From a virus (lineage: Duplodnaviria; Caudoviricetes), in IMG/VR virus record IMGVR_UViG_3300006104_000001, positions 1 through 57,826 of that record: a stretch of DNA of 57,826 nt. One strand, written 5' to 3'. Position numbers and translations under genes: made by a program. Positions 9,589 through 42,497 of the stretch are shown here, one piece after another. Each line of letters starts with the position of its first letter. The first letter of the stretch is position 1. The notes under the pieces are model-generated. The model was not told the DNA's origin. It did no database searches and was given only the letters and a program-made list of their open reading frames with translations.

Positions 9589-11433
9589 TCATAGCTGAAT
9601 AAAAGGCGGCAATCCGATGAGTTGCCCAAGGTTAATTCCAGTGGTAGATCCACCTCCTGAACCGACGTATGTGCCAGTTTGCATCGACAACCCATAACTT
9701 ACCCCCAACCTGACATCCGATGGTGATGGGTAATTTGCGGATATAGTTCCACTTGGTATTGTTCCGTTTACATATCCTGTTTCGTAACTAAATGAGTAAT
9801 CATACGCAAACCCTGTAAAAGTTGGATCAAAATACCCATTAGTATAATAACTGCCAGACCACCCTCCTGAAGAAATTGAACCATTTAAGTATAAAATAGA
9901 AGCATTATAATAGGCATCAAAATCTATGCCGGAATAATAATCCGTAGATCCATTATTATAATGTTGCCCATCGTAACCTACATAAGCCGCAGATCCATTT
10001 ATGTAAAAAATGGTTGCATCGTAATTATAGTCAAAATCTGAACCAGTAAAGGAATCTAGAAAGCCATTGGTATAGTGTTGTCCTCCATATCCTCCTGACC
10101 CACCAGCGGTTCCATTTATAAAAAAAAGCTCTTCCCCATAATAATAATCATAATCTGCCCCAGTAAAGCTATCAGGAATTCCTTGGTAATAATGTTGTCC
10201 ATTATAACCATTATTGGCAATTAATCCGTTTACAAAGAAATAACTAGTTGAGCCAGTTGGATCAAAACCATAGTCTATAAATGAACCTGTTTGACCAGCA
10301 TATATGCCGTATAATGTACCATTAAATCCACCATCTACACCAACTCCATTAATATAGTATTGATTTGAATTGTTAGTAAAATCCGTTGCTGGTCCTGTGA
10401 AAGTATTGTCTGCTAATCCTGATGTGTAGTATTGACCATTCCATCCTCCATTGAGCAAATTCCCTTGATAATAATAAAGCCCATCAGATTGTTCACCAGA
10501 AACCAATGATTGTTGACGAAACCGAACAGAAGTAATATGGAGGGAATTTTCTACTAAACCTGTTGGTTGAATGAATAAAGCGTAAAAACCAACATCCCCT
10601 ATACCCTGAGTATCTTTTGATACTAATCCATCAATATAAACTATATTTGAAGATCCAGGCAAAGAGTTAGCATGGGTTGTAAACCCACTATCTAACCAGT
10701 AATTTGATAAATTACTGAGATCACCATCACCAGTAGAATTATTAAACCATAATTGGGGGCCGGCTGAAATTGTAAAATTTGGATAAGTAGTGCCAAACGA
10801 AGCTCCATATAGTTGCGTAACTTCTGCCGCCGACAATTCTCTTGTCCAATATCCCGCTTCATCGATTTGTCCGTTTTGCCCTACCGCATAAGTAGCATCA
10901 CCATTAGAATTGAAATTTATAGGGTGAATGATATTGCTGTTGATCGGTTTTCCGCTTGAGGAAATCTGACCGACACGGCTTCCATCAACATAGATAGACG
11001 TATGACCAAACTGATTCCATGTACCAACGATATGATGCCAATTACCGTCTTGAGTGTTAATCCCATTTCCATAAACCCTATCCCTTGATCCATCATTGTT
11101 AACAAGAACGCTAAAGTTTCCATACCCACCAGAACCCAATTCTTGACCAGAACTGCCGTATGATTGCCCAGATGAAGCATTCATGGCAAAAAAATCTGCG
11201 GTAGATTTTACCCATATTGCCATTGAAAGCTGGGTTAACCCAGTAGGAACAATGTTTGTTCCTGTGCTTAAATATGTATTACCTCCAGAGAAATTAGCCC
11301 CTTTACCTACTACTGCATCGACAAGATTAACATTAGACCCATTTTGGATTAGATTGTGACCATTTCCGGTTAAATCTGACCAACTTGTATCGTTAAAATT
11401 CCAATACGCTAAAAGATTGTCGGTAAGTGCCAT
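9589..11433 (-). CDS. LamG/concanavalin-A-like tail fibre or receptor-binding protein with Tyr/Gly repeats
   Basis: LLAYWNFND, DGNWHHIVGTW, SIYVDG and GQIDEAGYWTRELSAAEV LamG motifs; ~39-aa GYxGQHYxxG repeats; AT-rich. Confidence 0.78.
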   Translation of the reverse strand: MALTDNLLAYWNFNDTSWSDLTGNGHNLIQNGSNVNLVDAVVGKGANFSGGNTYLSTGTNIVPTGLTQLSMAIWVKSTADFFAMNASSGQSYGSSGQELGSGGYGNFSVLVNNDGSRDRVYGNGINTQDGNWHHIVGTWNQFGHTSIYVDGSRVGQISSSGKPINSNIIHPINFNSNGDATYAVGQNGQIDEAGYWTRELSAAEVTQLYGASFGTTYPNFTISAGPQLWFNNSTGDGDLSNLSNYWLDSGFTTHANSLPGSSNIVYIDGLVSKDTQGIGDVGFYALFIQPTGLVENSLHITSVRFRQQSLVSGEQSDGLYYYQGNLLNGGWNGQYYTSGLADNTFTGPATDFTNNSNQYYINGVGVDGGFNGTLYGIYAGQTGSFIDYGFDPTGSTSYFFVNGLIANNGYNGQHYYQGIPDSFTGADYDYYYGEELFFINGTAGGSGGYGGQHYTNGFLDSFTGSDFDYNYDATIFYINGSAAYVGYDGQHYNNGSTDYYSGIDFDAYYNASILYLNGSISSGGWSGSYYTNGYFDPTFTGFAYDYSFSYETGYVNGTIPSGTISANYPSPSDVRLGVSYGLSMQTGTYVGSGGGSTTGINLGQLIGLPPFIQL

Positions 11434-11442
11434 AAATAAGGC

Positions 11443-11679
11443 TTAACTTTTTGCGATATTGGTAATGTTTCCGTTTCCGTCTCTTGTGATCGTTGTGGTT
11501 TCAAGAACCTGACCTCCACGAGAAACTACGATCTGGATAGGCTTTCCGTTACCATCATTGGTGAATGCTTGGTTATCCCATCCGACGTTGGTTCCTGAAA
11601 CCATATCTAGAATCTTTGACAAGATAATGTGATCGGAATCAGATGTATCTGCTGTTGTGGGTTCGTATCGTTCGCTCAT
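11443..11679 (-). CDS. Hypothetical small structural protein
   Basis: Beta-rich C-terminus (TITRDGNGNITNI) in tail module. Confidence 0.55.
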   Translation of the reverse strand: MSERYEPTTADTSDSDHIILSKILDMVSGTNVGWDNQAFTNDGNGKPIQIVVSRGGQVLETTTITRDGNGNITNIAKS

Positions 11680-11743
11680 GGTAATTGGGGTTTGTGGTTA
11701 ATAGTGTAACAGATAAAATACTAATGCAGACGTAAATCAAGCA

Positions 11744-12493
11744 TTATGTTGACCCAACAGGGATAGCAAGGCCTCCCATGATAGGTAGGGTGAAAGTAAC
11801 ATGGATTGTCTCGTGATCGTAGGCCTGGGTAAGTGCCGAAGAACTTTGAGAAGAGCTTCTGGAAGAACTCTGACTGGAAGAGGTACTTCCGGACTGACTC
11901 CTACTTGAACTCTGGGAAGAACTGGTTGATCCGCTCTGGCTTCTGCTGGAACTTTGACTGGAAGAAGTGCTTCCAGACTGGCTCCTACTGGAGCTTTGGC
12001 TAGAAGAAGTGCTTCCGGACTGGCTCCTGCTGGAACTTTGACTAGAAGAGGTGCTTCCGCTCTGGCTTCTCGAAGATGATCTACTGGAACTTCTTGATGA
12101 TGATCTGCTGGAACTTCTGCTATCACTTCGACTAGAGGATCTACTCGAACTTCTACTGGAAGACCTACTTCCACTACGGCTCGATGATCTGGATCCACTT
12201 CTGGATCCGCTACGGCTCGATGATCTGGATCCGCTTTTGGATCCACTACGGCTCGATGATTTGGATCCACTTCTGGATCCACTACGGCTCGATGATCTGC
12301 TTGCGCTACGACTTGATGATCTGCTTGCGCTACGACTTGATGATCTGCTCGCGCTACGACTATTACTCCGGGAAGAACTTTGGGATCTTGAACTGCTCTG
12401 ACTAGAACTTTGTGATGTTGAATCACTGCGGCTCTGCTCTTGAGGAGAACCTATTGCGCTACCAGATTGGTTAAAGTTAATTGAAGATGGCAT
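11744..12493 (-). CDS. Ser/Arg repeat protein (basic half of charge-zipper pair)
   Basis: 26 x SxS(R/K) then 5 x SQSGSTSSSQSSSR; C-terminal strand IHVTFTLPI; synonymous codons vary between repeats in this frame. Confidence 0.85.
   Translation of the reverse strand: MPSSINFNQSGSAIGSPQEQSRSDSTSQSSSQSSSRSQSSSRSNSRSASRSSSRSASRSSSRSASRSSSRSGSRSGSKSSSRSGSKSGSRSSSRSGSRSGSRSSSRSGSRSSSRSSSRSSSRSDSRSSSRSSSRSSSRSSSRSQSGSTSSSQSSSRSQSGSTSSSQSSSRSQSGSTSSSQSSSRSQSGSTSSSQSSSRSQSGSTSSSQSSSRSSSQSSSALTQAYDHETIHVTFTLPIMGGLAIPVGST
11858..12379 (-). repeat. 12-bp and 42-bp coding tandem repeats
   Basis: 12068-12379 period 12 (SxSR); 11858-12067 period 42. Confidence 0.9.
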
Positions 12494-12495
12494 AA

Positions 12496-13296
12496 TTAGA
12501 CGTACCAGTTGAATGCGTTATATCCGTCTGCTGTAGAAGTGCTGGTGCTTGTTCCGGTTTCAGTTTGTGTTCCGGTTTCTGTGCCAGTTTCAGTTCCAGT
12601 TTCTGTACCAGTTTCGGTTCCGGTTTCTGTACCAGTTTCAGTTCCGGTTTCTGTACCAGTTTCAGTTCCGGTTTCAGTTCCAGTTTCAGTTCCAGTTTCT
12701 GTACCAGTTTCAGTTCCAGTTTCTGTACCAGTTTCGGTTCCGGTTTCGGTAGCAGTTTCGGTTCCGGTTTCAGTACCAGTTTCGGTTCCTGTTTCTGTTC
12801 CAGTTTCGGTTCCGGTTTCGGTAGCAGTTTCAGTTCCGGTTTCTATACCAGTTTCAGTTCCGGTTTCGGTGCCGTTTTCCAAAGAACTTTCTTGAGAAGC
12901 ACCAGAGTTAACCCCTGATTCAGTAAAGCTTTCTTGAGAGATGCCAGAGTTAACCCCTGATTCAGTAGAACTTTCTTGAGAGATGCCAGAGTTAATCCCT
13001 GATTCAGTAGAACTTTCTTGGGTTAAACCATTGTTTTGAGATACTTCATTAGAATTATCTGATGTAGATCCAAGTGAAACTTGTGAATCTTGGCCTGTTT
13101 CAACTTGCGTCGAAACATTGGTTTGGTTTTTGGGGAATTGGTTAAGACCTCCCCCGACGATAACCTCGTAATCAAACTGAACGCTTTCAGGCAATGCCAC
13201 GATCACGTTCTGACGACCAGAAATCACGCCATTCTTGATCGACAACAAGACATTGTTGATGGCACTGGCTACATTGGATAGTTGAATCAGTGGCAT
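12496..13296 (-). CDS. Thr/Glu repeat protein (acidic half of charge-zipper pair)
   Basis: N-terminal helix plus VQFDYEVIV strand, ~4 x 14-aa SGISQESSTESGVN-type repeats, then LENG and 25 x TETG-type. Confidence 0.85.
   Translation of the reverse strand: MPLIQLSNVASAINNVLLSIKNGVISGRQNVIVALPESVQFDYEVIVGGGLNQFPKNQTNVSTQVETGQDSQVSLGSTSDNSNEVSQNNGLTQESSTESGINSGISQESSTESGVNSGISQESFTESGVNSGASQESSLENGTETGTETGIETGTETATETGTETGTETGTETGTETGTETATETGTETGTETGTETGTETGTETGTETGTETGTETGTETGTETGTETGTETGTETGTETGTQTETGTSTSTSTADGYNAFNWYV
12571..13032 (-). repeat. 12-bp and 42-bp coding tandem repeats
   Basis: 12571-12882 period 12 (TETG); ~12877-13032 period 42. Confidence 0.9.
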
Positions 13297-13300
13297 AGTG

Positions 13301-14170
13301 TTAGAATCTCCAAGGTGTCATGACAAAATTCATTCCAGGCCCCGCATCGGGAGCCATCTTGGACAGTAAATCCATCGCCCTTTGCAACCCTGTTTGTGCA
13401 ATCTTGGGGTCGTAATCATTAGGCCACAGGGGTCCTCCTACCATGCGGCTTAATGCCATCGGGAAGAGGATGGAGAAAACGTGCTCATCCGAAACAGGAA
13501 GGGGTGTCGGGCTAATGAGTTGTTTTAGAGTATATTGAAGCGGCCTTACCTCCATGTTCACCTTTAAGGTTAAAGGGCGATCTGGGATCGGGATAAGTCG
13601 CAGATAAAAGTATGGGGAGGCCCCGGAGGCCTGCCCTTGCGCTTCCACCACAAATCGCAAGGGATAACCTATCTGAGCCTCACCCAAGAATCTTCCCTCA
13701 TCGGGTTGTCTAAGAAGGTATCGAACAAAGATCCCATTGTTAAATAGTTCCGGATCTCCTGAAAACCTTGCGAAGTTTGGAGCTAGTGGGAACGCATCCG
13801 TATAGTACGTTGCCGTTACTGACCCTGTATTTCCCTGATAAGGAAGATCTAGAGTATTGGTGTCGATGATGCGGTTCATCTGGGAATCCCCAGGGATCGA
13901 TATGGAGAGTCCTATTAGTGACGGATCGACGCCTGTTATTGAGGTGCTTCCATTTGTCACCCCGACAACACAAGTGTTGGGAGCCTGAATGTTGAAAGTA
14001 ACATTTGATTTTACCCTGTATGGAGAAGGGGCGGCGGCAAAAAACTCGGCGATTGCCGAATTGATGGCATCCAGGACTTCTGTGGCATCGTCTGCCGGCA
14101 TGGAATGGATGTCCCTTACCTTCAGGTGACGGCAAATGCGTGATGCAAGTTGGAGAATTGTCGTACTCAT
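13301..14170 (-). CDS. Podovirus-type head-tail adaptor / tail tubular protein
   Basis: Helical N- and C-termini (VLDAINSAIAEF) around a beta core with GYPLRF...LRLIPIPD; downstream of MCP. Confidence 0.6.
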   Translation of the reverse strand: MSTTILQLASRICRHLKVRDIHSMPADDATEVLDAINSAIAEFFAAAPSPYRVKSNVTFNIQAPNTCVVGVTNGSTSITGVDPSLIGLSISIPGDSQMNRIIDTNTLDLPYQGNTGSVTATYYTDAFPLAPNFARFSGDPELFNNGIFVRYLLRQPDEGRFLGEAQIGYPLRFVVEAQGQASGASPYFYLRLIPIPDRPLTLKVNMEVRPLQYTLKQLISPTPLPVSDEHVFSILFPMALSRMVGGPLWPNDYDPKIAQTGLQRAMDLLSKMAPDAGPGMNFVMTPWRF

Positions 14171-14928
14171 TAGGATTTACCTTGTTGCGGATCAACCTCC
14201 GTATCGAAGTCCTCCCTTGGCTTGGGGTTGAGCAGTTTAAGTTTTTCAATCGCTTTGTCGTAATCTGCGGAGAACATCTGGGCTTCATCCTTTAGGATCC
14301 AATAATGAGATCGCATTGCATGACCGCGAGCTAGTGGCATGAGGTATGTTTCCATCCAATCAAGCGGGATCGGGAGCGTAACGGCATTGAGTGCCGCCGC
14401 TCCGGTGGAATGATTGGCCGAGTAATTGGCAACCAAAGTTCCATCAAGTTCGGGCACCTCGAAGGTCGTGACAACAGTGACGGTTAGCGGTGTTCCGCTT
14501 ACGGCACTTGGGGTAATGTGCAGAATGCTTCCTGGGTTTGCCGTGTAGGTACGCTCTAACCAGAATGCTTCTGGGGATCCTGCGGTGGCACTTGGGTTGT
14601 AGGTTGCCGCATACCAATCCAATTCTTCCTTCCGGTTTAAGGGGCGCAGTCTTGTGATGCCATCGGGTCCGATGACCTCGATGACTCTCGTGCTTTCCTG
14701 AATATTGAGCGGTTGATTTGCTACATTCGAGCTATTGGATCCAAAGGTAACATTTGTGTAAGTGGTGAACCTGAAGAACTCCCCTGTCTCACGGAAAATA
14801 TCCTGAATTGCCGCATTGATGGCATTGGTGGCGACATCTGCAATAAATGCCGGTGCATTGACTGGCTGTTCCATCCCCAGGAGGCGATAGAGGTCATCGA
14901 CGACCTTGGAGAGGTTCAGCATACTCAT
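14170..14928 (-). CDS. Second adaptor-like protein (paralogue of 13301-14170)
   Basis: ATNAINAAIQDIF, GSPEAFW...LHITPS and LPIPLDW...YLMPLA architecture. Confidence 0.6.
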   Translation of the reverse strand: MSMLNLSKVVDDLYRLLGMEQPVNAPAFIADVATNAINAAIQDIFRETGEFFRFTTYTNVTFGSNSSNVANQPLNIQESTRVIEVIGPDGITRLRPLNRKEELDWYAATYNPSATAGSPEAFWLERTYTANPGSILHITPSAVSGTPLTVTVVTTFEVPELDGTLVANYSANHSTGAAALNAVTLPIPLDWMETYLMPLARGHAMRSHYWILKDEAQMFSADYDKAIEKLKLLNPKPREDFDTEVDPQQGKS

Positions 14929-15420: not shown

Positions 15421-16938
15421 TTAGCTGACGACAGGCAGGCTGATTCCGGCGTATGGGATGGCGTGCTCCATGACCAAGAAATTGGGCATGATGCCATCGA
15501 CACGCTGGTAAGGGCTTTGCCCGAAGACGCTGGTGATGTAGGTCGTCTTCACGAACTCACCATCAAACATCTGCTCGGTGCGCTCGTTCCGGAAGCGGCC
15601 ATAACCACGGACTGCGGCATTGGCACCCAGAATGAGTGTGCGACCAAACGGAACACCCTTGGCGTTGGTCTCAAGGATCAACGAACCGACTGGGTGTGTG
15701 TTGGTGATGTTGGCGTCAGACCAAGGACCTGCGGCGGTTCCAGAACCGACTACCTGACCTACAGTGTGCAGGGCAAAGGAAGTTGCGGTGGTCGTGGAAG
15801 GCACGAGAGCCTGGTTGACAGTGAGGGCGTTCAGGCCACTTCCATCCAGCCCATTGGCATTGTAGCCATAGAAGCCGTACTTGCCCTGATTGGAACCAGT
15901 GAGGTTCACGATCAGGATGTAGCGCTGGGTCGTCGTTGCCGCGAGGCTATCGGTGTAGGTGAAGCGATAGGCGTAGTTCGAGAAGAACTCGAAATAACGA
16001 GCCTTGATCGCCGCCGCCGCCACGGATCCACCTCCGTAGATGTTGAACGATGCCGTGGGATTGTTGATGGCATTGCCAAGGAGGGCCTTGGGGTTCATCG
16101 CACTTCCGATTGCACCATAACCATCGTGATCGAGCGGGTTAAACTCGCGGATCACATGACCGTTCACATCGACATAGCCGCCGGTGAAGATCGGGTTCTC
16201 ATCACCACGGACGCCTGCATAACGCAGAGCCTCCAAGTAATCAGAGCTATTCTTCAGGGGCACGAGGGCTTCACCGAGTCCAACCGTCACGAAACGATTG
16301 ATCTGGTTCTTGCCTACCTTGGAGACCAGAGCAGGGCGTGCTCCGAGGGTCTTGAGGCGCTGACCTGCACTGATGATGCTGTCCATGCTGATGGTGTCAG
16401 CACTGGTCAGGGAATCGCGGGAAGAAACCTGATTTGCATAAATCGTGTTCATTGCGTTGCCCTTGTTGATGAACATCATCTGAAGGCGCTCGGTCTTCTT
16501 GCGACCAAGCCACTTGCCAAGCTGTTCGGGAACACCGGCCTTCAACTCCGCGAGGAGTGCAGTCTGGTCTTCCGTACGCAGGTTGAGTGCGGTGGCGTGA
16601 CGGAGGTAATCCACCTGAAGGGTGTAATTACCTACGCGGAACTCTTCCGCGTTGTCTCCGATGATCTCGTCGCCCTGGACACCATCACCATAGAGACCGG
16701 ACATCGTGCGGAACACGATTGACTGTCCAGCGCCTTTAGCGAGGTCGGTGACGGATTGGATGGGGGCTTCGGGGCCGGAACCCTCGAACTCACGGAAGTA
16801 ATCTTCCATCTGCTCGGAGAGATCGACACCCTTTTTCCAGAGCTTCGGCAAGAACTGCGAAGCCTGTGAGGCTAGATCGACGGCCAAGTTAGCATTGGCT
16901 GGGATATAGTAGGTATCTGCTGAATTATAAGTAGGCAT
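15421..16938 (-). CDS. Major capsid protein (N4-gp56 / DUF4043-like)
   Basis: DLAKGAGQSIVF...LYGDGVQGD...LQVDYLRHA pattern; follows scaffold; strong C-ending codon bias; terminator downstream. Confidence 0.85.
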   Translation of the reverse strand: MPTYNSADTYYIPANANLAVDLASQASQFLPKLWKKGVDLSEQMEDYFREFEGSGPEAPIQSVTDLAKGAGQSIVFRTMSGLYGDGVQGDEIIGDNAEEFRVGNYTLQVDYLRHATALNLRTEDQTALLAELKAGVPEQLGKWLGRKKTERLQMMFINKGNAMNTIYANQVSSRDSLTSADTISMDSIISAGQRLKTLGARPALVSKVGKNQINRFVTVGLGEALVPLKNSSDYLEALRYAGVRGDENPIFTGGYVDVNGHVIREFNPLDHDGYGAIGSAMNPKALLGNAINNPTASFNIYGGGSVAAAAIKARYFEFFSNYAYRFTYTDSLAATTTQRYILIVNLTGSNQGKYGFYGYNANGLDGSGLNALTVNQALVPSTTTATSFALHTVGQVVGSGTAAGPWSDANITNTHPVGSLILETNAKGVPFGRTLILGANAAVRGYGRFRNERTEQMFDGEFVKTTYITSVFGQSPYQRVDGIMPNFLVMEHAIPYAGISLPVVS

Positions 16939-21823: not shown

Positions 21824-24010
21824 TTACCTTACCGGCATGATTTGTCCGGGGTCGTTGATAGGAATGTTTGCGGCTGGCTCTTGGCTCTTGTCAGTATCCT
21901 GATCAACAGGAGTTCCATCTGGATTCATCTGCGGTGGTTGTGGTGCAACTGGGGTAATGATCTGCTCGGCCTGCTCGATCTGAAGGGCCTTTAGTGCCTG
22001 AACATAGAGCAATTTTGCCTTTTCCTGCACGTTTGGTTGAAGCTGATAGAATTGGTTGAGAAGATTTGCCGCCTGAACACTACTTTCTAGCATTTGTTCG
22101 CTCTTGGATCTGGTAAGAAGCAACTCCACATCAATGTCTAGGTTACGAACCTGATCCGGGGTCAGGGAAAGAACTTCTTTGGCATCTCCATTTGTCACAG
22201 TGAATACCTCTTCGGCATCCATGTTCTGATAAATGATTTCTGCGGCTGTTCTAAGAACCTCCGTAAGACCTGGCTCCAATGCCTCTAAATAAAGGCTAAA
22301 CATCTCATTTCCTGATTTCTCGATATTCCTGACTCCGGTGGCGAGTTTTGCACTGGGAAGACCAGCGGCCTGACCATCCATCGCATTCACCACGCCGCTT
22401 TCCAACTGCATGAGTTGCATAAACGTCTCCATCATTTCAAAAAGATTGTTGCCCTTCACTTCAGGCAAAGTGACATAATCTAGGGCATCTTCCTTTTTGC
22501 TCCCAGGAAGGAGCGTATAGGTCATCCCGGTGTTGAGAACTAGATTAGGATCACGCTGTCCCTCAAGCGTTTTGCTTGGATTCCAGAATGTCGTCCTACC
22601 TGCGGCACTTTCTGCAAAATTGCGGCGATTGATACACAGATCAATGAATTGCTGGCTGAGTTCAAATACTTCCATCCCCCCTACCCCATGCCAACGGCCA
22701 TCGATGCCATTGATGCGGATCACTGTGAATGGACGTTTTCCGGATGGTGAGACATTTCCAAGGTAATCGTAAAAAATCGGGGACATCGTGCGCTTGTCGA
22801 TCACCAGCATGATTTCCTCCACAAGGCCGTCCCCATCTGCATCATAGGAAAGATAGCACTCGGCAATTTCGGAGGTGGGGTTTTCGGTACTATTGTCCGT
22901 TTGGAGTTCACCCCACTCGTATCGGGGTTGATTGCGTCCTGTTTTGGGCACGTTCCCATCACCGGACATATTTTTTAGAAGATCCATCATCTTCTGGGCA
23001 TTTCGTACATCCTCCTCCGTTGTCGGTGGATTCATGATGTCCCTGCGGCTATATTGGTCGATCAGGGACATGACAGGTAAATCGTAGAGATGGCAGATAA
23101 AGTCGGCGCTCTGAACATCCTCTGCTGTCAGTGGGCACAGAAAATCCTTGTAATAAACAACTCCGCAATCAGGCCCTCGATAAAGGCTGTTTTTCTTGGT
23201 GATCATTTTCGGAGCAAAGATCGGAATCTCCGGCATCGGGGTAATTTGATCGCGCTCAAGAACCATTCCACCAAAAGGTTGCCCTGTAGCTGGATTCATT
23301 CCCTGAACAAAAGAATCTTCCTCTGTAATTGGTAGTCCGTCAGTGCCAAGAATCTCGTTACCCTGCTCGTCAACTAGGACGTTTTGCATGGTTTTGTAGA
23401 TCATGTCTCGGTTCTTAAAGGTCGTTTTGACAACGGCCTCGCCACGGATAAAAGCGTACTCGATTGCTTTTATGAGTTGGTTTTTGACGTTTGTTTTATT
23501 TTCGATCTTCCACTGGGCGTGTTTTTCAATCGTCTCGGCAAGTTCGTCATCCTGTTGTGCCACCGGATACACTCCAAACCACGGATCAGTTCCAAAGAAA
23601 TACTCAACGGATCGAGCGATCATCTGGCGAACCATGCGTCGTGTGACAGGAAGCGTCAGATTACTTTCCTTAAAGATTCCACCTACTGCCCAGCGCCTCC
23701 ACTCGACCTTATTGTGATAGGTCATTTCGTAGTAATCACGCTTACCCATGAAAGTTCTTCCCCCAGTGGGCTTTTCGGGATCTTCACGCTCGAACCAGTT
23801 GTGCCAGAGAGTAATTGTCCTGCCCAACTCCACTTCAAGTTGTTCGATGCGGGTCGTGGCAAGTTCCATCAGCTTATCCTCGGTGGCACGATCAAGCCGC
23901 AGGGAACTAGGGAAAGGTACCCTGGGGGCATTCGGGTCTAATGCCGGTGATACGTCAGGGAGTTTCCTATTATCTAGGGCGTTTGTGGCTTGGTTGTCTG
24001 AAGAAATCAT
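21824..24010 (-). CDS. Portal protein (P22/podovirus-like)
   Basis: 728 aa; FIRGEAVVK, IAECY...DGDG, RPFTVIR...WHGVG and TGV...GN motifs. Confidence 0.85.
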   Translation of the reverse strand: MISSDNQATNALDNRKLPDVSPALDPNAPRVPFPSSLRLDRATEDKLMELATTRIEQLEVELGRTITLWHNWFEREDPEKPTGGRTFMGKRDYYEMTYHNKVEWRRWAVGGIFKESNLTLPVTRRMVRQMIARSVEYFFGTDPWFGVYPVAQQDDELAETIEKHAQWKIENKTNVKNQLIKAIEYAFIRGEAVVKTTFKNRDMIYKTMQNVLVDEQGNEILGTDGLPITEEDSFVQGMNPATGQPFGGMVLERDQITPMPEIPIFAPKMITKKNSLYRGPDCGVVYYKDFLCPLTAEDVQSADFICHLYDLPVMSLIDQYSRRDIMNPPTTEEDVRNAQKMMDLLKNMSGDGNVPKTGRNQPRYEWGELQTDNSTENPTSEIAECYLSYDADGDGLVEEIMLVIDKRTMSPIFYDYLGNVSPSGKRPFTVIRINGIDGRWHGVGGMEVFELSQQFIDLCINRRNFAESAAGRTTFWNPSKTLEGQRDPNLVLNTGMTYTLLPGSKKEDALDYVTLPEVKGNNLFEMMETFMQLMQLESGVVNAMDGQAAGLPSAKLATGVRNIEKSGNEMFSLYLEALEPGLTEVLRTAAEIIYQNMDAEEVFTVTNGDAKEVLSLTPDQVRNLDIDVELLLTRSKSEQMLESSVQAANLLNQFYQLQPNVQEKAKLLYVQALKALQIEQAEQIITPVAPQPPQMNPDGTPVDQDTDKSQEPAANIPINDPGQIMPVR

Positions 24011-24031: not shown

Positions 24032-25129
24032 TTATACTTGTGTTTTGGGTTTATAGCCAGCCTTCTCTTTCAGGATAAATTCATACCAGAGCCACGATTT
24101 TTCAGGATTTCCAGATCCCTCATGGAGTTGCCAGTTTCGAGCCTCCTTTGCCATTTCTTCTCGTTTCTTGGGATTAAATGCCAAGCACGAGGCGTAATAA
24201 CTGGCCTCATCTGCTGAATTACAGAGAAAACCAGTCACTCCGTGCTGAATTTGTTCCTTAAAACCCTGAGTATTTGATCCTATTGGGACACATCCACTAA
24301 GCATTGCCTGGGTGGTGGAGATTCCATAACTTTCTAGGAATGGGTAGTAATGAAGCAGACAATGGCTTGTCGCGTAAAGTTCCGACATCAGCAATGGATC
24401 AGAAATATGATCATTGAGAATGACATTGAGTGAACCATTCCACTTGCTCGATGGGTCACAAGGATTTCCCACCTTGTAAAGCGCCTTTTCCCCCCATCCG
24501 GCCACCTCTATCTGAACCTTAATTCCAGCCGGTGCCATGATGGAGCTAAACATTCTCCAACTCTCTTCATGCCATTTTTCAGAATCATCGCGGGAGGCTT
24601 TGAGCACCCTGAACTCCTTGCGATTTTTCTTTTTGGGGGCAAGCGGCATATAACGACTCTTGGGATTGATATAGATCTGATACCCTTTGCGGTGACAGAT
24701 TCTTGTCCCCTTTCCGGCGGCCTTGACAAGTTGAGGGCCAACAAGATCTCCATTACTTGTCGTTTGAAAGAAATACTCATCGACAAGGCCATCTTGGATC
24801 GCACTGATCTCGGCATCGATCAAATGGGACATACAACTACTCCAGATCATCCATTTTGGCCTGTCTGAATACTGCCTCATGTAGTCAAAGCACTTGTCCT
24901 CTCCAAAGCTCATCAGGATCTTGCACTCCTCGAACATACCTGGCCGGTAATGAACGACCGGCACTCCGAGTTGCCTTAAAAAGTTAGCCCTACCACTATC
25001 TACGATAGGGTCTCCCATTGGCACGATGCACCGAACAGGTACATTTTTAGATTTCAGGAGTTCTATTGCACCAAGGAGTTCAGGACCACATCCTCCGGCC
25101 TGATGAATGATTCCAAAAAACGAAATCAC
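24032..25129 (-). CDS. GT-B fold (GT4-like) glycosyltransferase
   Basis: ESYGISTTQAMLSGCVPIGS...GFKEQIQHGVTGFL; second Glu of ExxxxxxxE replaced by Gln. Confidence 0.85.
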   Translation of the reverse strand: MISFFGIIHQAGGCGPELLGAIELLKSKNVPVRCIVPMGDPIVDSGRANFLRQLGVPVVHYRPGMFEECKILMSFGEDKCFDYMRQYSDRPKWMIWSSCMSHLIDAEISAIQDGLVDEYFFQTTSNGDLVGPQLVKAAGKGTRICHRKGYQIYINPKSRYMPLAPKKKNRKEFRVLKASRDDSEKWHEESWRMFSSIMAPAGIKVQIEVAGWGEKALYKVGNPCDPSSKWNGSLNVILNDHISDPLLMSELYATSHCLLHYYPFLESYGISTTQAMLSGCVPIGSNTQGFKEQIQHGVTGFLCNSADEASYYASCLAFNPKKREEMAKEARNWQLHEGSGNPEKSWLWYEFILKEKAGYKPKTQV

Positions 25130-25803
25130 TGAACTTCCTCCATTTTTACGCCGTAGATTACGTTAAAATGATGCTCGCAGGATTCTTGGAAAGTAATGCC
25201 ACTGCAATTTAGAGAAAGATCTGCCAAGCGACTATAGTAATCATGAGATCTGCGTTTGATTACTTCTTTTGTGACATAATGTTGAGATCCCCATACACCG
25301 CAACTATAGGCAGGAACATGATACTCAGGCGGAACAATCCATGTCAGATTCCCAAATGCAGATCCTTTTCCGACACTTGTATGGAAAGGCCTAGAATTGC
25401 AGAAATAATCAAAAATGTTTGTCATTTTTTCCCTATTCACTTCTAACAGAATTTCACTGGTATGCCCTATGAATGGTGCTCCTTGTAAAAAAACAATGAT
25501 GTCATCCAGATTTTCGTAATTTCTGTCAATCCAACGAATCCACTGACCGCAATCCCATCCCCCATTAGGAGTTTTTTCAATTTTTGCATTGATACCTTTA
25601 GGTATTTCCGGAACTTCACCTGCCTGAGAAATGGTGATGGAAAAATCTTTAGGCAACGCAGTTAGCCATTGAAGTTGCTCTTTGTAATGCGCCACGACAA
25701 CTCGAACACTTGGCAATTTATTGATGGGCGTAGAAATAGTGGCGGAAAGGTATTCAGTATTGTTTTTCATAGGTGGTGGTTTTGTGTCTGTTTTAATTTC
25801 CAA
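25126..25803 (-). CDS. DUF3431-like glycosyltransferase-related protein
   Basis: VVVAHYKEQLQWL, YENLDDIIVFLQGAPF and SQHYVTKEVIKRRS motifs. Confidence 0.72.
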   Translation of the reverse strand: MEIKTDTKPPPMKNNTEYLSATISTPINKLPSVRVVVAHYKEQLQWLTALPKDFSITISQAGEVPEIPKGINAKIEKTPNGGWDCGQWIRWIDRNYENLDDIIVFLQGAPFIGHTSEILLEVNREKMTNIFDYFCNSRPFHTSVGKGSAFGNLTWIVPPEYHVPAYSCGVWGSQHYVTKEVIKRRSHDYYSRLADLSLNCSGITFQESCEHHFNVIYGVKMEEVQ

Positions 25804-28800
25804 AAAGCATCTGCTGGATACTCTTTGTTTTAGGCCTCATTGAGGACAATACCTGTTGTTTAGCGTCCTTTCGGCTCTGTTCAAGGATTTTATGGACAAG
25901 TTTATGGTCTTCCTCAGTGGGATTTTTAGCCATTTGTGGAGTGATTGCGGCGCGGGTAGCTTGTTGGAATGCTTTTCCTGCTAGTTCCGAATACTTCCGG
26001 AACATCTTGTCATCCATGTAGTGAACTTTACCTGTCACTGGATCGACATACCTGCGGGTTGGCTTATCCGGGGCAAATGCCTCGTCCGGATGCTTGGCAT
26101 TCCAGTTGGCAAAAAGCCTATCTGCCGGTTCGACCTTGGGTACTTCCCTACCCTGCATTGGGGTCAACCTAGAAACCATAGTCCCCTCTTTCTTGATGGG
26201 ATTGCCATAGAGATCGATCCTGGGTTCATTGAGTGAACCAAATGGCAATGCTGATTGACCTACCCGCTGGGCAATGCGTGGGATGAGTTCTTTGGGGTTG
26301 CCCTCAACGCTTGTTTCCCTGACATAAGGATCTGATGCCCGGATTGGCTGGCGTAACAGGTTGGGCACAAAGCTCGCGGCAAAGTTTGCCGCCCAGTCTG
26401 CGGCGTTTTGAGGGTCACTGGTAACTCCGGCGATATCTTTTAATCCTTTACCAAAAGATTTTTCCTGAAATTGATTCCATATACCGCCAAAAACCTGCCC
26501 TAAGATTTCTTTTCCACTGGCTCCATCGCGAGCAGACTTTGCGGCTCTAATCATGTCAAGGGTTGTACCAAGGACTGTTGCAATAGGCTCGATGCGGCCA
26601 TAATTGTAAGTGGTTCCATTGACCTTGATATGATAGGCAGGAACCCCAAGACGTTCGGATAATGCCTTGTCTCCCTTGTTGTGGGATTCACTGCTTCCAG
26701 TAAATAGGATTTTTTTCTTGTCGTCGTCCTGATCTCCTGCGGCGGCACCCCAGAGAGCGGCCATCAACGACCATGCGAGAATCTGCTCTGAAGTGTCTCG
26801 GATCATTTCAGCGCCGGCATAGGGATGGGGGTTAAGTTTTCCGTCTTGGAATTTGTAAAAACCCTCTCGCCCCATCTTGTAGAGCATGGTTGCCGTACCT
26901 ATAGGTGATTTTCTAATTCCTACGCGGGGGATATTGTAAAGAACGCGTACAAAGGGTATGAAGAATCTTCCAGGAGTATATCCCCTGAGGCCACGTTGAA
27001 GAGCTTCCGCTCCGGCCTCGACGATGTTGCCACCCGACTCATCCATGTTCCGAAGTGGTGTCTGGAAAGCCAGATTTACGGCATGGCTAACAGCACGCTC
27101 CCATGATTGAGATCCAGGTGTCGTGATTTCGCTTTGAATGTATTTCGCCATCTCATCGCCTTCATATCCCTCGGCCTTGGCAGATCTGTAGGCCTGTGCC
27201 CCGACTTCCATGTGGGCGATGATGGTTTTCACGGCATCGTCCATGAAGGCCAGTGCCCTCATTGGCATACGGATGATCCTGCCTGCCTTGCCGGGAATAG
27301 CGCCACTTGATGCATGACCGACGATCTGCCCCTGATCGAGCTTCAGATTGTGACCCAACAGATCATAGTCGATCATGGATTGTTCGGCGTCCCATGCACG
27401 AAGGCCTGCTCGGACAGCATTGCTTACCCCTGGAACGATTCCTTTCATGATATATTTGAACTCTCCCATCTGAGTTCCCTCTGGATTGCCGATTGCCGAA
27501 TTTACTAAAGCCTCCATGCCTCTCTGTATGGTGTAATCAATCGCTCCATTAACACCCATTCCGGTAAAGTTAGCCGCGTGTGTCACCATTCCTGAAAGGA
27601 TTGAGGACATCCAGTATTCGTGAACCATGTTTAGGGCATTTCCGTTACTTGCAGAAATGGTACGTCCCAGTTTGATCGCATCGACAGGATCCGCGATATT
27701 GAAAGTGCGATTGGGCTTCTTCTTGGCAAGACCTGCATCCTCACCCATTCCCATGAGTTCGAGTGCTTTCTGAAACTCGGATTCAGCTTTATCAAGGTTG
27801 ATTGGAGATCTGGAGTTGAGTCCGGATGGCGGTTGCTCGATGTCACTGGCACTCATTCCTTTCTCGAACTTGGCAAAATGCCTTGAACGGAAGCTGTCTT
27901 GAAATTGTTTCTTGAGGTTTTCGACCTGCTTGACGCTTAATCCGGTGGCTTTTGCAGTGTTTTCAAATGTTTTTCCCTTCTGAAGGAGCCTGATTGCCGT
28001 TTGCTCATTGGGACGGAAACTTCCGATCAGGTTTTCGCTGACCTTGCTTCCGATCAAGGAGACCTTGACCTCTCCGTTGAGGATGTCGTCAAGAGAGACG
28101 CCCATGCTTTCGAGAGCTTTCTTTGCTGATTCCATCTGGGCATCGACGATTTTTGAAAGAGCATTAGACTTTTCTGCGGCATCTTCTATTGCATCGATCC
28201 TACGAGATTCTTCAGGAGATGGTGAAAAGATCATCTTTGCCAGAAACTCACGATGGCGATCTGCCGGTGACTGAAAGGGATCCACGCGGGATCGTAATCC
28301 CCTCGCCTGTTCGGTTCCTGTCTGACGATAGGCATAGATCAGTTTGGCAAGTTCGGCACGTTTTGCGCTGTCGGTAGAGGCTCCGGCGAGTTCACGAGCC
28401 ACCATCATCTGAGCGGCCTTTGTCTCGGCAGGATTCAGGGTTCCGCCATTCATTCCGGCATCCATGATCCGCTGGCGAGTACCAGCATAGTCATTATCAA
28501 GAAGGTTTTTCCCCTCTGCGGACCACTGGGATTCTTTCTGCTTGGTAGCGATGGTTTTTCGGTACTCATCAACTCCCATGATCTGCGGATCAAGGGCACC
28601 TAATCCTAATTTAGGGTTTCCAATGGTACGACTTCCGGATTTCTCTGCCTTGGCTAGATTTTGCCAATCAGAGATGTCCCTCATGGCATTTTCCACATCG
28701 CCTTTCAGGTCAGATCCTTCTGGATTGAGTGGGTTTCTTGCAAAAAGAGTATTCCTTCCCGACTGATCGGGTGGCGTGGGGCGATCATTGATCCCCTTAA

Positions 28801-31800
28801 ACATGACATCAAATGGAACAATCTTGCCATCTGGCCTCTTAATGAAGTTTCCCTCATGAGCATCACGCATGAGGATTCCTGTATCTCCATGCTTGTATTG
28901 ACCATATCCATAGTCCCCGGCAAATGGCTCCCACCCCTGAGTTTTTAGGTATTCAGGAAGATCATTGCCGGTAGGGTGCAGGCCTTCGAGGTAAGGTTGG
29001 GAAGTCCAGATGGATGGTTTTCCGGTTTTTGGATCTTGGCTTATTCCAAGGAAATCAACTTTTGCACTTGGAACCTCCCGCGAAAACTCATCTAGCCTCC
29101 GTAAGTATTGGAAGGCTGATTTGCCTGGGAATCCATATTTTCCATTTGCCGTAGCCTTAACAAGGCGCTGGGTTCCATCGCTTCCTGTTATCTTCCAAAC
29201 ATGGTGCTCTGTTTGGCCTGCATTATTTTTGTCTTTTGAAAACTCATCAATAGCATCTTGAGGGATGATCCTATTGTTTTCTTTTGCCCAATCAATGAGG
29301 GCCTTGTCATGATCCCCGATTACACGATTGTCGCTGACGACCCCCGCATATTCCGGTGTTTTGCCCCCAGTAATTTCGACAAACGCGCGTTCCGCTGGAA
29401 TTGCTTGTCCGACTCCTCCTTGCTCAAGGTCTGCGGAAGTGATTTCTCTGGGAAGAGCGGAGGGCGTCCGGTTTTCTGTGCTGTTTTCTGTGTTGTCATG
29501 CGTTAAGTCTTCATTATCCCAAGACAATTTGCCAAGGTTTTCTTGGGTGCGTCCGGCCATTTTATCGCGGATGGCCTGCATTTTCTCTTCTGGGCTGAGC
29601 GGTTCGCGGGAATCAAGCCCCTGCGGCTTTCCTTTGATGGGGGTATAGGATAGCTTTTCCCCATTGTCGGAAAGGAACTTGTAGAAGTCCTCAAGTTTAC
29701 CAGGAAGCAGAGAGCCGCGCATGAAGTTTCCTTTGCGAACCATTTCTCCACCTGCGAAGAACTTGTTAAAGACAGGGTTTTGCCAGTATTTGCCACCTGA
29801 CGCCTTGCTCTGGGGAACCTGAACAAACCGGACTTGTGACTGAATGGGGTCACTCGTGATCGTAAGTGTTTTATCTCCATTTTGGATATCGTAATCCTGA
29901 GCTTTTACAAAACTTTGGAAATCATTGATCGGTTGCCTGTTAAGATCCTGAGTTGCACGGATTTTGGTGAAATTGTTTGGGAGAAGGATACCCATCTTGC
30001 TTTCTCCGGAGTCAGTCGTGTAATTGATGACTTGGCCTGTGCCTCGAAGTTCTGCCAAGGCGGCAAGTAGATTTCCAGTAACGATGTTTCTGGTATTGGA
30101 AACGTCTGCGGTGGCATCCCACTCCCTTGCACCGCTTCCAATGGCAATCTGGAACTTGTCGATCTGCGAAGCCGGAACCTTCAGGGTATTTGTGGTGTCG
30201 TTTGTACGGATAGTGAAGATTTGCTTACTGGGTGTGATCGGGCTGGATTTATCAAGATCAACGGATTCGATGACGGCCAGGCCTTCTGACCCATCAGGTC
30301 GTGTGTAGGAAAGAATACGACCCATCATTCTCATTCCAGTGGCAACAGTGCTTGCCATCTGGCGTTGCTGGGCTAGGAAGCTCTCCTTCTTCTCATCCGT
30401 CCAGTTAAGGGATCTCTTGGCCTTAACCTGCTCGGCTTCCGTATAGAAGTCGCGGGCCATTTTTTCGTAGTTCTGCAAATCATTACTGGAAGTTGCCCTC
30501 TTGTTGGTGGCAAGCGTAGCCGCCTCATCTCCACTAATGGGCTTTTTACCCATCTCTGCATGGACTGTTTCCAGATAGCTCGGATCGGAAAACACCGAAT
30601 CCCCATCTCCGGCGTGCGTAAAGACTTCACTGGCCGTTGTCTTGGCCTTAATGTCCATCGGCTTTGCTTCCAGATCATTCTGTCCCAATTCATTGAGATA
30701 ACTGATGTGGGCATTGTATTCATCCGTCACCTTGTCCCAGAAGTTTTGCTGTTCCTCGACAGGAAGGACAGCCAGGTAACTGGTGATCATGCGGGCAGTA
30801 TGGCCGTCCGGATGCTCCTCCATTGCTGATTTTATATCATCGAAACTCTTTATTTCCCCATCATCACTGAAAAAGTTTTTCTTGAGTGAACCGCCAAGGT
30901 TGAAAAGCTGATTGGCGAGATCCTTATCCTTCATGAGGAACCGGAAGGCGATTTCGTCACCATATTTGTTGTAGATGTCGGTGTTCTTGATCCCCTCACT
31001 GACATCGCTTTTAGCATTGCTGGTCGTATTGGCATTCAGTTTAGCCATCTTGCTTGCAAGGATCGCGGCTGGGCGCTTCTCTGCGGGAAGAGCAGTTTGA
31101 AGAAGCGTGTATTCCGGAAGCCTAACTTGCCCGGTTCGGTTAATGCGTCCCAGCGTTTGCATGAACTCGTTGATGTCCTGATGGGGCTGGGCAACGATCA
31201 TGACGCGGGGAGACTGATCCTTGGCCGTCTCACTTGCATGGAGACTGACTCCGGTTGAACCACTCTGGTTCAGGATAACAAAATTCAGAGGGCTATTATT
31301 AAATGCCTTGATGACATTTCCCTTGTGAATGCTGGTTTTCTGCTCGTGATCTGGGCGTGAGTAGATTTCGTTGTATTCATCAAGCCTAGATTTCCGACCA
31401 GTGATTTCGTCAGTAGCAAAGTTATTACCCGATTTCTCAACCTTACTTCTGATATAATCGATTGGGGAAATGGGAAGATCACCCAGATCGGCCTGGTCGA
31501 TCTCGGCGCGGGCATCCTGGTGGACATCCCACATTTTGCGTCGCATCAGTTCTTGAGCGGCCTTTGGATCTGCCTCAACAACCTTTGTTCCATCTGGAAG
31601 AACACCTTTTTTGACAATGGCCTGTGCAAGCTGATTGTCGCTGAGACTAGCGAACTCTGGATCAGGAACTCCTGTGATGGTGAACTTTTCGTGTTCGTCG
31701 TTGGCATTCTTTTTTCCAGTCTTAAAGGTAAGCATTCCATCGAGATACTTTTGGGTAATCCCCTTATAGGACATATCGTAGCCACCATTTTTAAGATCTT

Positions 31801-34800
31801 CGACGATCCCCTCCATCGTATTCTGGACAGTGACAACTACCTTTTTACCTTGACGCATTTCTTGAATTGCCTGTTCAGCGGCGGCATCTGCCTTGATGGC
31901 AAGTAGGTATTGACTGACTACATTGTGCAGTTGGGATGCAAAATCGCTATCCATAGCGATATTGGATCCTTTTTCAGCACTGAACCGCTTGGCCTGTTGG
32001 GAAATGACACCATTGATGGCATTGGCGGCTTGCTTCATCTTGTCCTGAACTCCCATGATCGTTCTCAGGGATTCGGTCAGGTTGTCGGCTAACTTGGCAT
32101 CTCGTTCAAGATTCTCCTCGGTAATATGAGTATTAAATTTAATGCCCTCGAAGCTACGTTCGCGGCGAAGGTATTGACCAGCACGAGCAAGCATCTGAGA
32201 TGCTATCTGCATGGCAGGGACTCCTCCGTGGTTCATCAGGTCAACAAGGCCATCCATTCCTCCGGCCATTTTCCCAAGAGCAGTCTTGAAATAAACACCC
32301 ATTGTTTCGGGTCTCTTGATCGCGGTCGCAGAGGAGTAATAGGCGTGTTTTGCGTTATTCAAGAGATCACGCATCCGGTAGCCGATAGTCGATTTGCCTG
32401 CCGCCAGATGACTTTCATCAAGAATAAATACGGCTTTTGGCCCGAATGCTTTAAGAGCTTCCGTCCTCCATTTTCCAGGAGGTGCCTGACCATCCATTAC
32501 CATACGCATTGCCACCTTTGTCGGTGCGGCCTTGCGGTCGGTATCGGACTTTAACTGATCATAAGTGGTGAAGATGGCATTGGCTCCGTTGTGTAGCTTT
32601 CCATTCTTGGTAGCTTCCTTCCAATAGGACTCTCCATAATTGAGCTTGCGATCCTTTGCGGCGTCAAAATCACGCGAGGAATCAAGAAGGGCTGGGACAA
32701 TGTGTTCAGCGCCAACATCGACTAGATCGCGGGTAAGCATATCGCTTTGCAGGGTGCGATCTTTAGTGATAAAAACAGGGATAAGACCATTTTTCTCTGC
32801 CCATCGCATCAGTGCGGCGGCAATACGCCCCTTTCCGATACCTGTCTGATCTCCAATGATGAGCGCTCCATCATTCTTGAAGTTATGAATCGCGGCGGCA
32901 ACGCCATCGACTTGCTCTCCGGATAGGTACTTCGAGATGTCCTCACCATCCTTGTAACCCAGTTCACTGTGCACCCACTTCCCTAGATCGCCATACTGCT
33001 CTTCCATTTTGGCAAATGCCTCCTTGGCGGCAGAGGCCATATTGGTCGGGATCAGTGTATCGACCCCCTTGACCTTGCTGAAGGGTTCGTAAGCTACTTG
33101 GAATTGATCTGCATCCGGAGTTAGTTCGTTTCCGGGTCGTGGGGGGTTATCTGTTGAAGGACGTACTCCACCAGATTGTTCACCTTCTCCCCTGGAGTTG
33201 TTTCCTGATTGCTCATCAGATCCTCCGGAACGTCCAAATTCGTCTTGTCCAGAACTGCCAACATCCATTCCTGAAACTGGCTCTTGGCCTCCGGACTGAA
33301 TTTGTCCGCTGACAGGTTCGGAAGGGGTTCTTGGAGCATTGTTCCGCTCTGATCCTGTATTGCGTTCAGGATTTCCGACAGGTTCTTGTCCAGGGATGTT
33401 CTCTCCTCTGGGCTTTGAAAGTCCGGAGAGCCTACCAACCATGTCGCCCACTTTCGAGCGCAGGTCGTCCTCTGTGATTCTGTTTTGCTGGATACGTTGT
33501 TCATCGGTCAGTTGGGTTGTTTTCCAGAGATCATCCCATGTATTGATGATACGAGGGGCTTTGTAAGAAGGCAACGCGATCTCTGAAGGTTTCGTGCCGA
33601 CTAGGGTGATGACATCCACCGGCCAACCCGCTCCCTGCTTCTTGTAGAGGTCGCCATTGACGGTGAAATGATCGACAACTCCGTAGTTGTCATAGAGATA
33701 TTTGAAAAATGCTCCGCGCTGGCCTCCGGCGTAATAACTTTGGCGTGCCTCATCGGAAAGTTGTTTTGGTGGTCCTCCGATAATCAGTGTGGCGCGGCCA
33801 CGATAGTCGCGATTGTCCACGACTGGTTGCATTTTCCGGTCTTGGAATTGCGATCTTGCCGAATGGTTTTTTTTAGCTTCCGCTTCTTCGTCCGTAATTA
33901 GCGATTCCAGTGCTTTGGCATTAATGGCATGATCGATCTGGGTGGTTTCCCCAAAAGGAGTTTTGAAAACTTTGGCCTTCCCATCTTCTCCCATGACAGA
34001 TCCAAAGGGAGCATTTGTGATGACTCGATCTACTTTATCATTTTCATCCATTCCTGTTGCAACTTTTGGTGAGAACTCCGTTGCATCTTCAGAAGTAACT
34101 CGCGTATGCGGGTTAGGCATACCCGATTTCACATAGTTATCGACCCTGTTGGGATCAAGTTCGTTAAAATGAATGATCTGGCCGAAATTGGAATCGATTA
34201 ACAACATTCCATGACCTGCTGATGGTTCATAAACCCGAAACCCATTTGCAAGATCTGCGAGTTTATCGGCAACATAAGCCAATGGCGCAGGAGTGGAATA
34301 TGCCTGATTGATCTTTGATGTGCTTGTTTGTGCCCCTAATGTTGGTTGATTTTTGTAGAGATCAATTAACGATTTATAGGCCTCATCATCTTCCTGGCTA
34401 TGAACGATATCTTTGGCGGCCATTACGATTCCGGCCTCGATAGACTCTTGGACTTTTTTGATTCCACCCTGTTCTGCTATGCCCTGATTATCGATTAAGT
34501 CTTTTACCTGAAAAGAATCGCCGCCTCGAGATGCTTCCTCTGCAAGGTCAGCGGATTTCATAATTAGTTCCCGATGCTTTTGATCTTTTATTTGTTCAGG
34601 AGTATATTCTGTTTTTTTAAGTTCTTTTGGCCCAGATGGATCATGCTGGTTGAGAAATTGCCATATCCTGACGACATCTTTTCGTTCTGCACCAGATGTT
34701 CTTTCTTCATCAAAAATACGTTGCGCGACTTTCCTTAGTCCATTAACCGAGGCTTGAACAGCTTCATTTCTGGTCGGGTATTCTGTATCGCTTGTAGTAT

Positions 34801-42260: not shown

Positions 42261-42497
42261 TTAGCTCACTCTTTTATCTTTTTTCTTTAGCGGAGCCATA
42301 AACTCCGAATTGTCTTCAAAAATGTTGGGACTTCCCACCATGTTTGCCTTTGGGTTCGATGGATCTGGTTTGTTCCAACCTCCTCTTCCAGTAGCCCCCT
42401 GACGCAATCTTTTCCCCTGATAATCAGGAGAAACATTATCAGGTCTGTTATCGCGTCCCATAGTCTGTGATGTATTCCAATCGAAGACGCAAATCAA
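42261..42497 (-). CDS. Hypothetical protein
   Basis: Overlaps the TerL stop; true start may be the downstream MGRDN. Confidence 0.5.
   Translation of the reverse strand: MICVFDWNTSQTMGRDNRPDNVSPDYQGKRLRQGATGRGGWNKPDPSNPKANMVGSPNIFEDNSEFMAPLKKKDKRVS

Follow-up and report, generated by a model that had tools for sequence, protein, structure and literature searches.

What do two adjoining repeat genes of a tailed phage encode when each carries a non-repeat end that looks like one half of a small domain? The question is raised by genes A and B of the virus record IMGVR_UViG_3300006104_000001 (Duplodnaviria; Caudoviricetes), which is called the window here, meaning the whole stretch of DNA analysed. 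The window is the entire record of 57,826 base pairs (bp), has direct terminal repeats and a completeness rating of 100%, and is the complete genome of an uncultured freshwater phage, whose portal and adaptor genes are of the SU10-like podovirus type. An earlier note had proposed that the ends of A and B derive from a single Trypco-like (trypsin-co-occurring) domain, whose hairpin was expanded and split at its tip. The answer that we favour, at somewhat better than an even chance, is that A and B are two chains, translated separately, which together form a hairpin-shaped structural module of the tailed phage, antiparallel and charge-paired, with repeat tracts of equal length. The acidic (T/S-x)n tract of A would run antiparallel to the basic (S-x)n tract of B and pair with it by complementary charge, and the two tracts would be kept equally long. 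The base would bring together the A N-terminal domain (~60-75 amino acids, aa) and the B C-terminal strand, probably completing one small domain, and the tip would consist of the aromatic C-terminus of A and the N-terminus of B.

Gene A (12496..13296, minus strand) encodes 266 aa with a net charge of -39, comprising an N-terminal domain, acidic (S/T-x)n repeats and an aromatic C-terminal tip, and gene B (11744..12493, minus strand) encodes 249 aa with a net charge of +28, comprising a short N-terminal tip, basic (S-x)n repeats and a C-terminal strand. The amphipathic helix and the strand that the earlier note ascribed to A are present in the translation, the helix-like segment LSNVASAINNVLLSIKNGV occupying residues 6-24 and VQFDYEVIV residues 39-47 of the N-terminal domain (residues 1-60; 13117..13296, minus strand). 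The terminal strand TIHVTFTLPI ascribed to B is found at residues 229-238 of its C-terminal end (residues 220-249; 11747..11836, minus strand), followed by the 11 residues MGGLAIPVGST. AlphaFold2 run on A alone also placed a helix at residues 6-21, but with a predicted local distance difference test (pLDDT) value below 50. M1, A12, I20, G23, R28, P36 and F41 are invariant in eight aligned A-type N-terminal domains, and the terminal motif of B aligns with that of its relatives (QAYDHETIHVTFTLPIMG versus VTFEDESVIVSFSIPIKA; hhalign E 0.0012, probability 19%); because of these two observations, the end features of A and B are regarded as more than chance.

The DNA periods of the repeats between these ends were obtained with Tandem Repeats Finder. 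In A, a low-charge 14-aa repeat (12883..13020, minus strand; unit of 42 nucleotides (nt), 3.3 copies) adjoins the N-terminal domain, and the (TETG)n array (12551..12879, minus strand; 12/24-nt unit, ~27 tetrapeptides, 1 Glu per 4 residues) leads to the aromatic tip (12499..12550, minus strand), which ends in GYNAFNWYV; relatives of A likewise have Tyr/Trp-rich C-terminal tips. The tract of B exhibits Arg-dense repeats at its N-terminal end (12170..12361, minus strand; 36- and 24-nt units, ~1 Arg per 4 residues) and a low-charge 14-aa repeat at its C-terminal end (11865..12067, minus strand; 42-nt unit, 4.8 copies). The strict (S/T-x) run covers 52 dipeptides in A and 100 in B, and Ser or Thr at every second residue over up to 100 dipeptides is as expected if the strands have two different faces. 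AlphaFold2 modelled the TETG tract as long beta strands with pLDDT 70-81, which, for a single-sequence run on a low-complexity tract, is taken as a lead only. Foldseek comparison of the A model with the PDB gave no match at E<=0.001, and eight matches at E 4.6-9.8 (beta-helix and ice-binding proteins) were disregarded. Neither A residues 1-62 nor the 128-aa protein described below had a usable feature match in the ESM Atlas, whose structural rows rest on low-confidence models. Other long open reading frames (ORFs) of 117-229 aa in other frames or on the opposite strand of the arrays (12509-12918, plus strand; 11737-12426, minus strand) are by-products of the repeat periodicity and not genes.

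The A N-terminal domain is the sole part with detectable homologues (P0002, P0005, P0008-10 and the loci L003-L011). A HMMER scan with A residues 1-70, covering 1.84 billion representatives, returned seven matches at E<=0.001, two of which are genuine relatives, namely P0002 (176 aa, 56% identity) and P0005 (132 aa, 40% identity). P0001, P0003, P0004, P0006 and P0007 are large FN3, Ig and NHL proteins, whose scores sum many weak matches to repeated domains, and they were rejected. P0008-P0010 (161-163 aa) were gained by a profile search of 120-2000-aa proteins, and locus searches gave L003, L005, L006, L007, L009, L010 and L011, with L008 and L012 being repeats of L003 and L011. No counterpart of the domain or of the pair was found among Pfam and PHROGs families, PDB sequences or GenBank phages; A, B, the N-part of L003 A and the 128-aa protein were all without a tblastn match in GenBank phages, and the queries A4 and A7 met only a leucine-rich-repeat protein (E 0.35) and integrin alpha-6 (E 0.038), respectively, among PDB sequences, both judged to be chance.

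A and B recur as a pair of separate ORFs with 2 or 5 nt between them in all eight loci examined (the window, L003, L005, L006, L007, L009, L010 and L011, with A of L005 cut by the contig end), which represent three lineages. In the window, the junction (12491..12498, minus strand) comprises the A stop TAA at 12496-12498, a 2-nt gap at 12494-12495 and the B ATG at 12491-12493, reading TAC GTC TAA TT ATG exactly as the earlier note had given it, and B is in the +2 frame with respect to A. A single gene, broken in two by a sequencing error or with its halves joined in vivo through programmed frameshifting, was considered very improbable as an explanation of A and B, although the +2 offset of B, constant in 8/8 loci, speaks for it. 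The stop and the gap are present in eight separately assembled contigs, in 7/7 loci tested the reading frame of B is already closed 2-8 codons ahead of its ATG, and no slippery heptamer was seen by eye in the last codons of A. A profile search of 120-2000-aa proteins, with the best 8000 candidates scored, found no fused A-B form and only A-type proteins of 132-176 aa. Contigs from 4/4 public runs compared with 12380-12560 showed neither a difference nor a gap at the junction, which upholds the split that the note wished to see checked for an indel; this comparison used contigs and not raw reads, so that rare variants are invisible, and the source sample of the window is possibly among the runs. 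With the split present in all loci and the contigs clean, the junction is neither an indel artefact nor a likely site of frameshift fusion, and a fused A-B product is unlikely because the split is kept in 8/8 loci and the B frame is closed in 7/7. The tight stop-start spacing of 2-5 nt would suit coupled translation.

The lengths of the two chains were found to vary in lockstep. Among the five close relatives, A and B measure 161 and 113 aa in L010, 213 and 163 aa in L009, 241 and 191 aa in L007, 310 and 261 aa in L003, and 337 and 289 aa in L006, so that the A-B difference remains at 48-50 aa in 5/5 (r=0.9999), and of the 120 ways in which five values can be paired, just one gives a match of this kind. 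Relative to L010, A has grown by 52, 80, 149 and 176 aa and B by 50, 78, 148 and 176 aa, with growth by 14-aa units in both chains (TETGTETQTSTQTN-type in A and SSSRSQSGSQSNSQ-type in B). Across the seven complete pairs, the correlation of A with B length is r=0.98. Outside the arrays, the proteins of the close relatives are 75-95% identical, and therefore the arrays changed recently and together. The best match between the A and B repeat units as DNA is 20/42 nt, which is equalled by 162/2000 shuffles, and DNA homology between the units was thereby ruled out; since the units are dissimilar as DNA, the lockstep is not a by-product of DNA homology.

Local variation was also observed within the arrays and at the tips. 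In L006 (2384-4272), the middle of the A array contains four TENGTEHQ-type units and one TEYQ, with His or Tyr replacing Thr, and the middle of the B array contains five consecutive SSCR units, with Cys replacing Ser; these units may reflect contact-level covariation or a metal site. Two variants of the tip, spanning the 3' end of A and the 5' end of B, divide L003, L006 and L010 from L005, L007 and L009. In one of the two sets, A ends in ...YYSLSGGSF..QNFS and B starts with MALEDINGMQANV after a 5-nt gap; in the other, A ends in ...YFVMDSNNGAIQIQEN.AGFR and B starts with MAREDLDGMQADV after a 2-nt gap. As the pieces are adjacent in DNA, the tip variants may represent a single recombination block rather than co-evolution.

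The net charges of A and B are opposite in 7/7 pairs, being -39/+28 in the window, -12/+5 to -34/+17 in the L003 group and +5/-19 in L011. The charges of L011 are thus swapped, the A-type N-terminal domain being joined to a basic Ser/Arg tract and the B-type C-terminus to an acidic TETG-like tract, and this swap is best described as a compensatory exchange. Mirrored gradients were observed in the window, where negative charge density climbs from the N-terminal domain of A to its C-terminus and positive charge density drops from the N-terminus of B to its C-terminus. After rescaling, charge complementarity is r=0.84 for the antiparallel versus r=-0.17 for the parallel arrangement, as fitted with one window size and one choice of ends. 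The low-charge 14-aa repeats of A and B face one another solely in the antiparallel arrangement, and in both L011 and the L003 group the A N-terminal domain is followed at once by an acidic stretch, opposite a basic stretch that immediately precedes the B C-terminus. Antiparallel pairing would therefore place the A N-terminal domain beside the C-terminal strand of B, and the A C-terminus beside the B N-terminus. Because of the mirrored charge gradients, the length lockstep and the charge swap, the non-repeat ends of A and B are very probably located at the same end of such a pair. Complex prediction with A residues 1-70 and the last 45 residues of B scored 0.07 and 0.11 (mark 0.32) and counts for neither side.

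A single-chain relative bears on the proposal that these ends are two halves of one domain. L011 encodes a 128-aa protein (L011:4127-4513), with seven close homologues of 113-128 aa, whose residues 4-76 match residues 5-78 of the A N-part (hhalign 96.5%, E 7.2e-10; 93.4%, E 2.5e-7 in a broader alignment), and its C-terminus aligns collinearly, though weakly, with the C-terminus of B. One A-type N-terminal domain copy was counted per L003-group record (L007 left out) and two in the complete L011 genome; no copy of the 128-aa protein was found in the window at E<=10. The search for a one-ORF homologue suggested by the earlier note therefore yielded a single chain homologous to the A N-terminal domain and no fused A-B form. 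Its idea that the two ends belong together is partly supported by this comparative evidence, their meeting at one end by the gradients, the lockstep and the swap, and their shared domain by the 128-aa chain, whose C-terminus resembles that of B only weakly. The A N-terminal domain and the B C-terminus as two parts of one small domain may still be called a reasonable reading.

Several observations weigh against the paired, antiparallel module. The C-terminus of the 128-aa protein matches B of L011 at 11/35 identical residues in BLASTP (E 0.004), gives hhalign E 0.043-0.044 with a probability of 1.2% against B, and in HMMER reaches E 89, at rank 199 of 1320 rows with a background of 1746 frames; against window B, no alignment was obtained. 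A HMMER profile of the relatives' B C-termini misses window B, and the equivalence of window B therefore rests on position, composition and an 18-residue motif. The mean pLDDT of AlphaFold2 models is 51 for A alone and 35 (unusable) for the 128-aa protein, which adds no structural support. All repeat lengths come from short-read metagenome assemblies, in which collapsed arrays would look clean too; the longest exact internal repeats are 9-92 nt, a size normally resolved by reads. The comparisons cover three independent lineages only.

Two readings would do without a paired module of this kind. The tracts might be independent, disordered and mucin-like, possibly glycosylated and unpaired, with lengths that match by equal span or through an assembly artefact. 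This was judged unlikely, in spite of several points that suit it: low-complexity tracts are frequently disordered, a GT1 gene follows B in 6/6 related loci with downstream sequence, a (T-x)n protein of L004 lies beside a putative sugar-nucleotide enzyme, and the serine-rich repeat glycoproteins (SRRPs), in which long (S-x)n dipeptide repeats are typical, carry O-glycans on Ser/Thr (PMC6973325). Unpaired tracts would leave the opposite charges of 7/7 pairs, the charge swap of L011 and the mirrored gradient unexplained, and independent assembly errors in two arrays would destroy, not produce, a correlation. Slightly less likely again is a reading of B as an Arg/Ser-rich, protamine- or SR-like nucleic-acid-binding protein that is packaged, with A as an acidic chaperone or DNA mimic masking B until use. 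The window charges of -39 and +28 fit such a role, matched lengths and opposite charges would suit stoichiometric neutralisation, and a stop and start 2-5 nt apart would suit equimolar synthesis. Against it, the chain with the A-type N-terminal domain is basic in L011, so that the roles of the two chains are not fixed; neutralisation needs neither strict Ser/Thr alternation nor conserved end pieces, and the charge density in the L003 group is low, at ~1 Arg per 14 residues.

The Trypco label itself was not borne out. Trypco1/2, now Pepco, are small defence effectors encoded beside peptidases (eLife PMC7159879), and a preprint describes Pepco as 117 aa long, forming 9-10-mer beta-barrels that are activated by C-terminal cleavage after a conserved, functionally important Ile in the tail (10.1101/2025.11.14.688446). 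A true Trypco/Pepco member with its hairpin expanded and split, still oligomerising into a beta-barrel, would share with A and B the layout of helix, strand, long hairpin and terminal strand; B and its relatives end in ...PI plus a short tail (...IPIKAA in the relatives), recalling the C-terminal Ile of Pepco, and the 128-aa relative is near the 117 aa of Pepco in size. This reading was nevertheless considered improbable. With HMMER, whose filters discard most matches above E ~0.1, the Pfam models Trypco1 (PF19493) and Trypco2 (PF19631) matched nothing at E<=10, whether in six frames of the genome, in full-length A and B or in their ends (A residues 1-60 and the final 37 residues of B), and nothing at E<=1 on the 128-aa protein or A and B of L011. 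Trypsin_2 (PF13365) was absent from the genome at E<=1, with a control positive in 14/14 genomes, other peptidase families not having been searched individually. The context consists of adaptor, capsid, portal and fibre-like genes, which are phage virion genes and not a defence locus with a peptidase and a sensor NTPase, and the arms lack a hydrophobic face. A Pepco-type single chain of ~100-120 aa was not found in the pair, which consists of two ORFs of 266 and 249 aa, the L011 128-aa paralogue being the only protein of that size. Membership of Trypco is thus not supported, and a distant fold relationship is possible.

The paired module agrees with its surroundings, as the virion-gene neighbours back it: adaptor genes lie upstream and a Laminin_G_3 gene downstream in the window, and a tail-fibre-like gene lies beside the L011 pair. 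The module would most likely serve, close to the tail fibres, as an extended fibre or stalk whose length can be adjusted. Two adjoining SU10-adaptor-like genes occupy 13301-14928 (minus strand), of which the SU10-type adaptor at 14170-14928 (minus strand; Pfam SU10_adaptor 29.6 bits) alone exceeds the Pfam cut-off of 27, the paralogue at 13301-14170 (minus strand) being weaker at 20.4 bits. A and B are placed between this adaptor-like gene and the gene for the Laminin_G_3 fibre-like protein (9589-11433), and a 78-aa ORF directly after B (11443-11679, minus strand) is without a family match (best PHROGs E 0.16). Further along are the major capsid protein (15421-16938), whose sole GenBank phage match is at 25% identity, the SU10-type portal (21824-24010; Pfam SU10_portal 98.7 bits, cut-off 30), a GT1-family glycosyltransferase (24032-25129, minus strand), a DUF3431-like protein (25126-25803, minus strand), a 4981-aa ORF (25793-40738, minus strand) and a terminase-like gene (42494-44461). 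The 4981-aa single ORF sits between a 490-aa ORF (40742-42214) and the DUF3431 gene; long ORFs in L003, L009 and L010 stop at the same relative position, and that of L003 contains, by eye, putative helicase-like and sigma-factor-like stretches. At least 20 freshwater metagenome runs share at least half of the words sampled from 11400-14200, and none of the 24 runs listed for this region was an RNA dataset.

Modification by sugars may accompany the module, which may be O-glycosylated by glycosyltransferases of the phage itself, and the GT1 protein is a possible modifying enzyme of A and B. Pfam confirms the GT1 gene directly after B in L003 and L011, and the L006 record stops 53 nt after B. In the window, the GT1 orthologue lies ~11.5 kb from the A/B pair and is 56% identical to the orthologue directly after B in related loci (L003), and the DUF3431 protein is 57% identical to the orthologue directly before A in L003. 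A 58-aa DUF3431-like remnant was observed upstream of A in L009 (5832-6008), where L003, L006 and L007 have a full-length copy. The L004 protein with (T-x)n repeats (L004:7410-10079) is an unrelated phage protein of 889 aa with several hundred residues of TETQ-type repeats, and it adjoins a 310-aa ORF that is, by eye, a putative epimerase/dehydratase-like sugar-nucleotide enzyme.

A matched, co-varying, oppositely charged pair of dipeptide-repeat genes appears to be new; a limited search of the literature by title found no counterpart among phage repeat pairs, which does not show that the pair is undescribed. If A and B do pair, they would form a natural two-chain "zipper", in which two tandem arrays in adjacent genes must grow and shrink together and the acidic and basic roles are interchangeable provided that the charges stay complementary. 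The pair would then offer a clean system for asking how two unstable repeat arrays are coupled by selection, what stabilises polar beta ribbons or stalks of great length and how phages tune the reach of their surface structures, as well as a case study of a small domain whose expanded hairpin was split at its tip.

Compared with known systems, the pair resembles Pepco in its putative small module of a helix and a long beta-hairpin and in a terminal strand whose hydrophobic residue is followed by a short tail, which is a resemblance only, and differs from it in having two chains with hydrophilic repeat arms of ~200 residues. A and B hairpins might also stand side by side in the manner of Pepco, forming a hetero-oligomeric, fully hydrophilic beta-barrel tube tens of nanometres in length, set genetically by the number of matched repeats; this is a long shot, and if true the tube would be a repeat-programmable protein nanotube or ruler, serving a short-tailed phage as a fibre or as a conduit through the host envelope. 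With the SRRPs of Gram-positive bacteria, served by GtfA/GtfB, the pair shares very long (S-x)n tracts, a GT1-family glycosyltransferase in or near the locus that may act on them and a possible extended stalk, and it departs from them in its phage origin and its two complementary chains. By reading, neither A nor B contains LPXTG, the SRRP cell-wall anchor; no signal peptide was noted in them, with no dedicated predictor run, and no Sec-related or accessory Sec gene was matched by Pfam among the 21 window proteins scanned. In the polar zippers of Perutz, strands with alternating polar or charged residues reportedly pair via complementary side chains, and the arms of A and B would be alike in their alternation and complementary pairing; unlike polar zippers, they are separate gene products of tens of repeats with comparative evidence for matched length. 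In the donor-strand complementation of chaperone-usher pili, one chain gives a strand that completes the small domain of another, much as the strand of B would complete the small domain of A, with the difference that the donor strand would stand at the end of a long partner arm, an arrangement suggested by the single-chain relative and the antiparallel topology.

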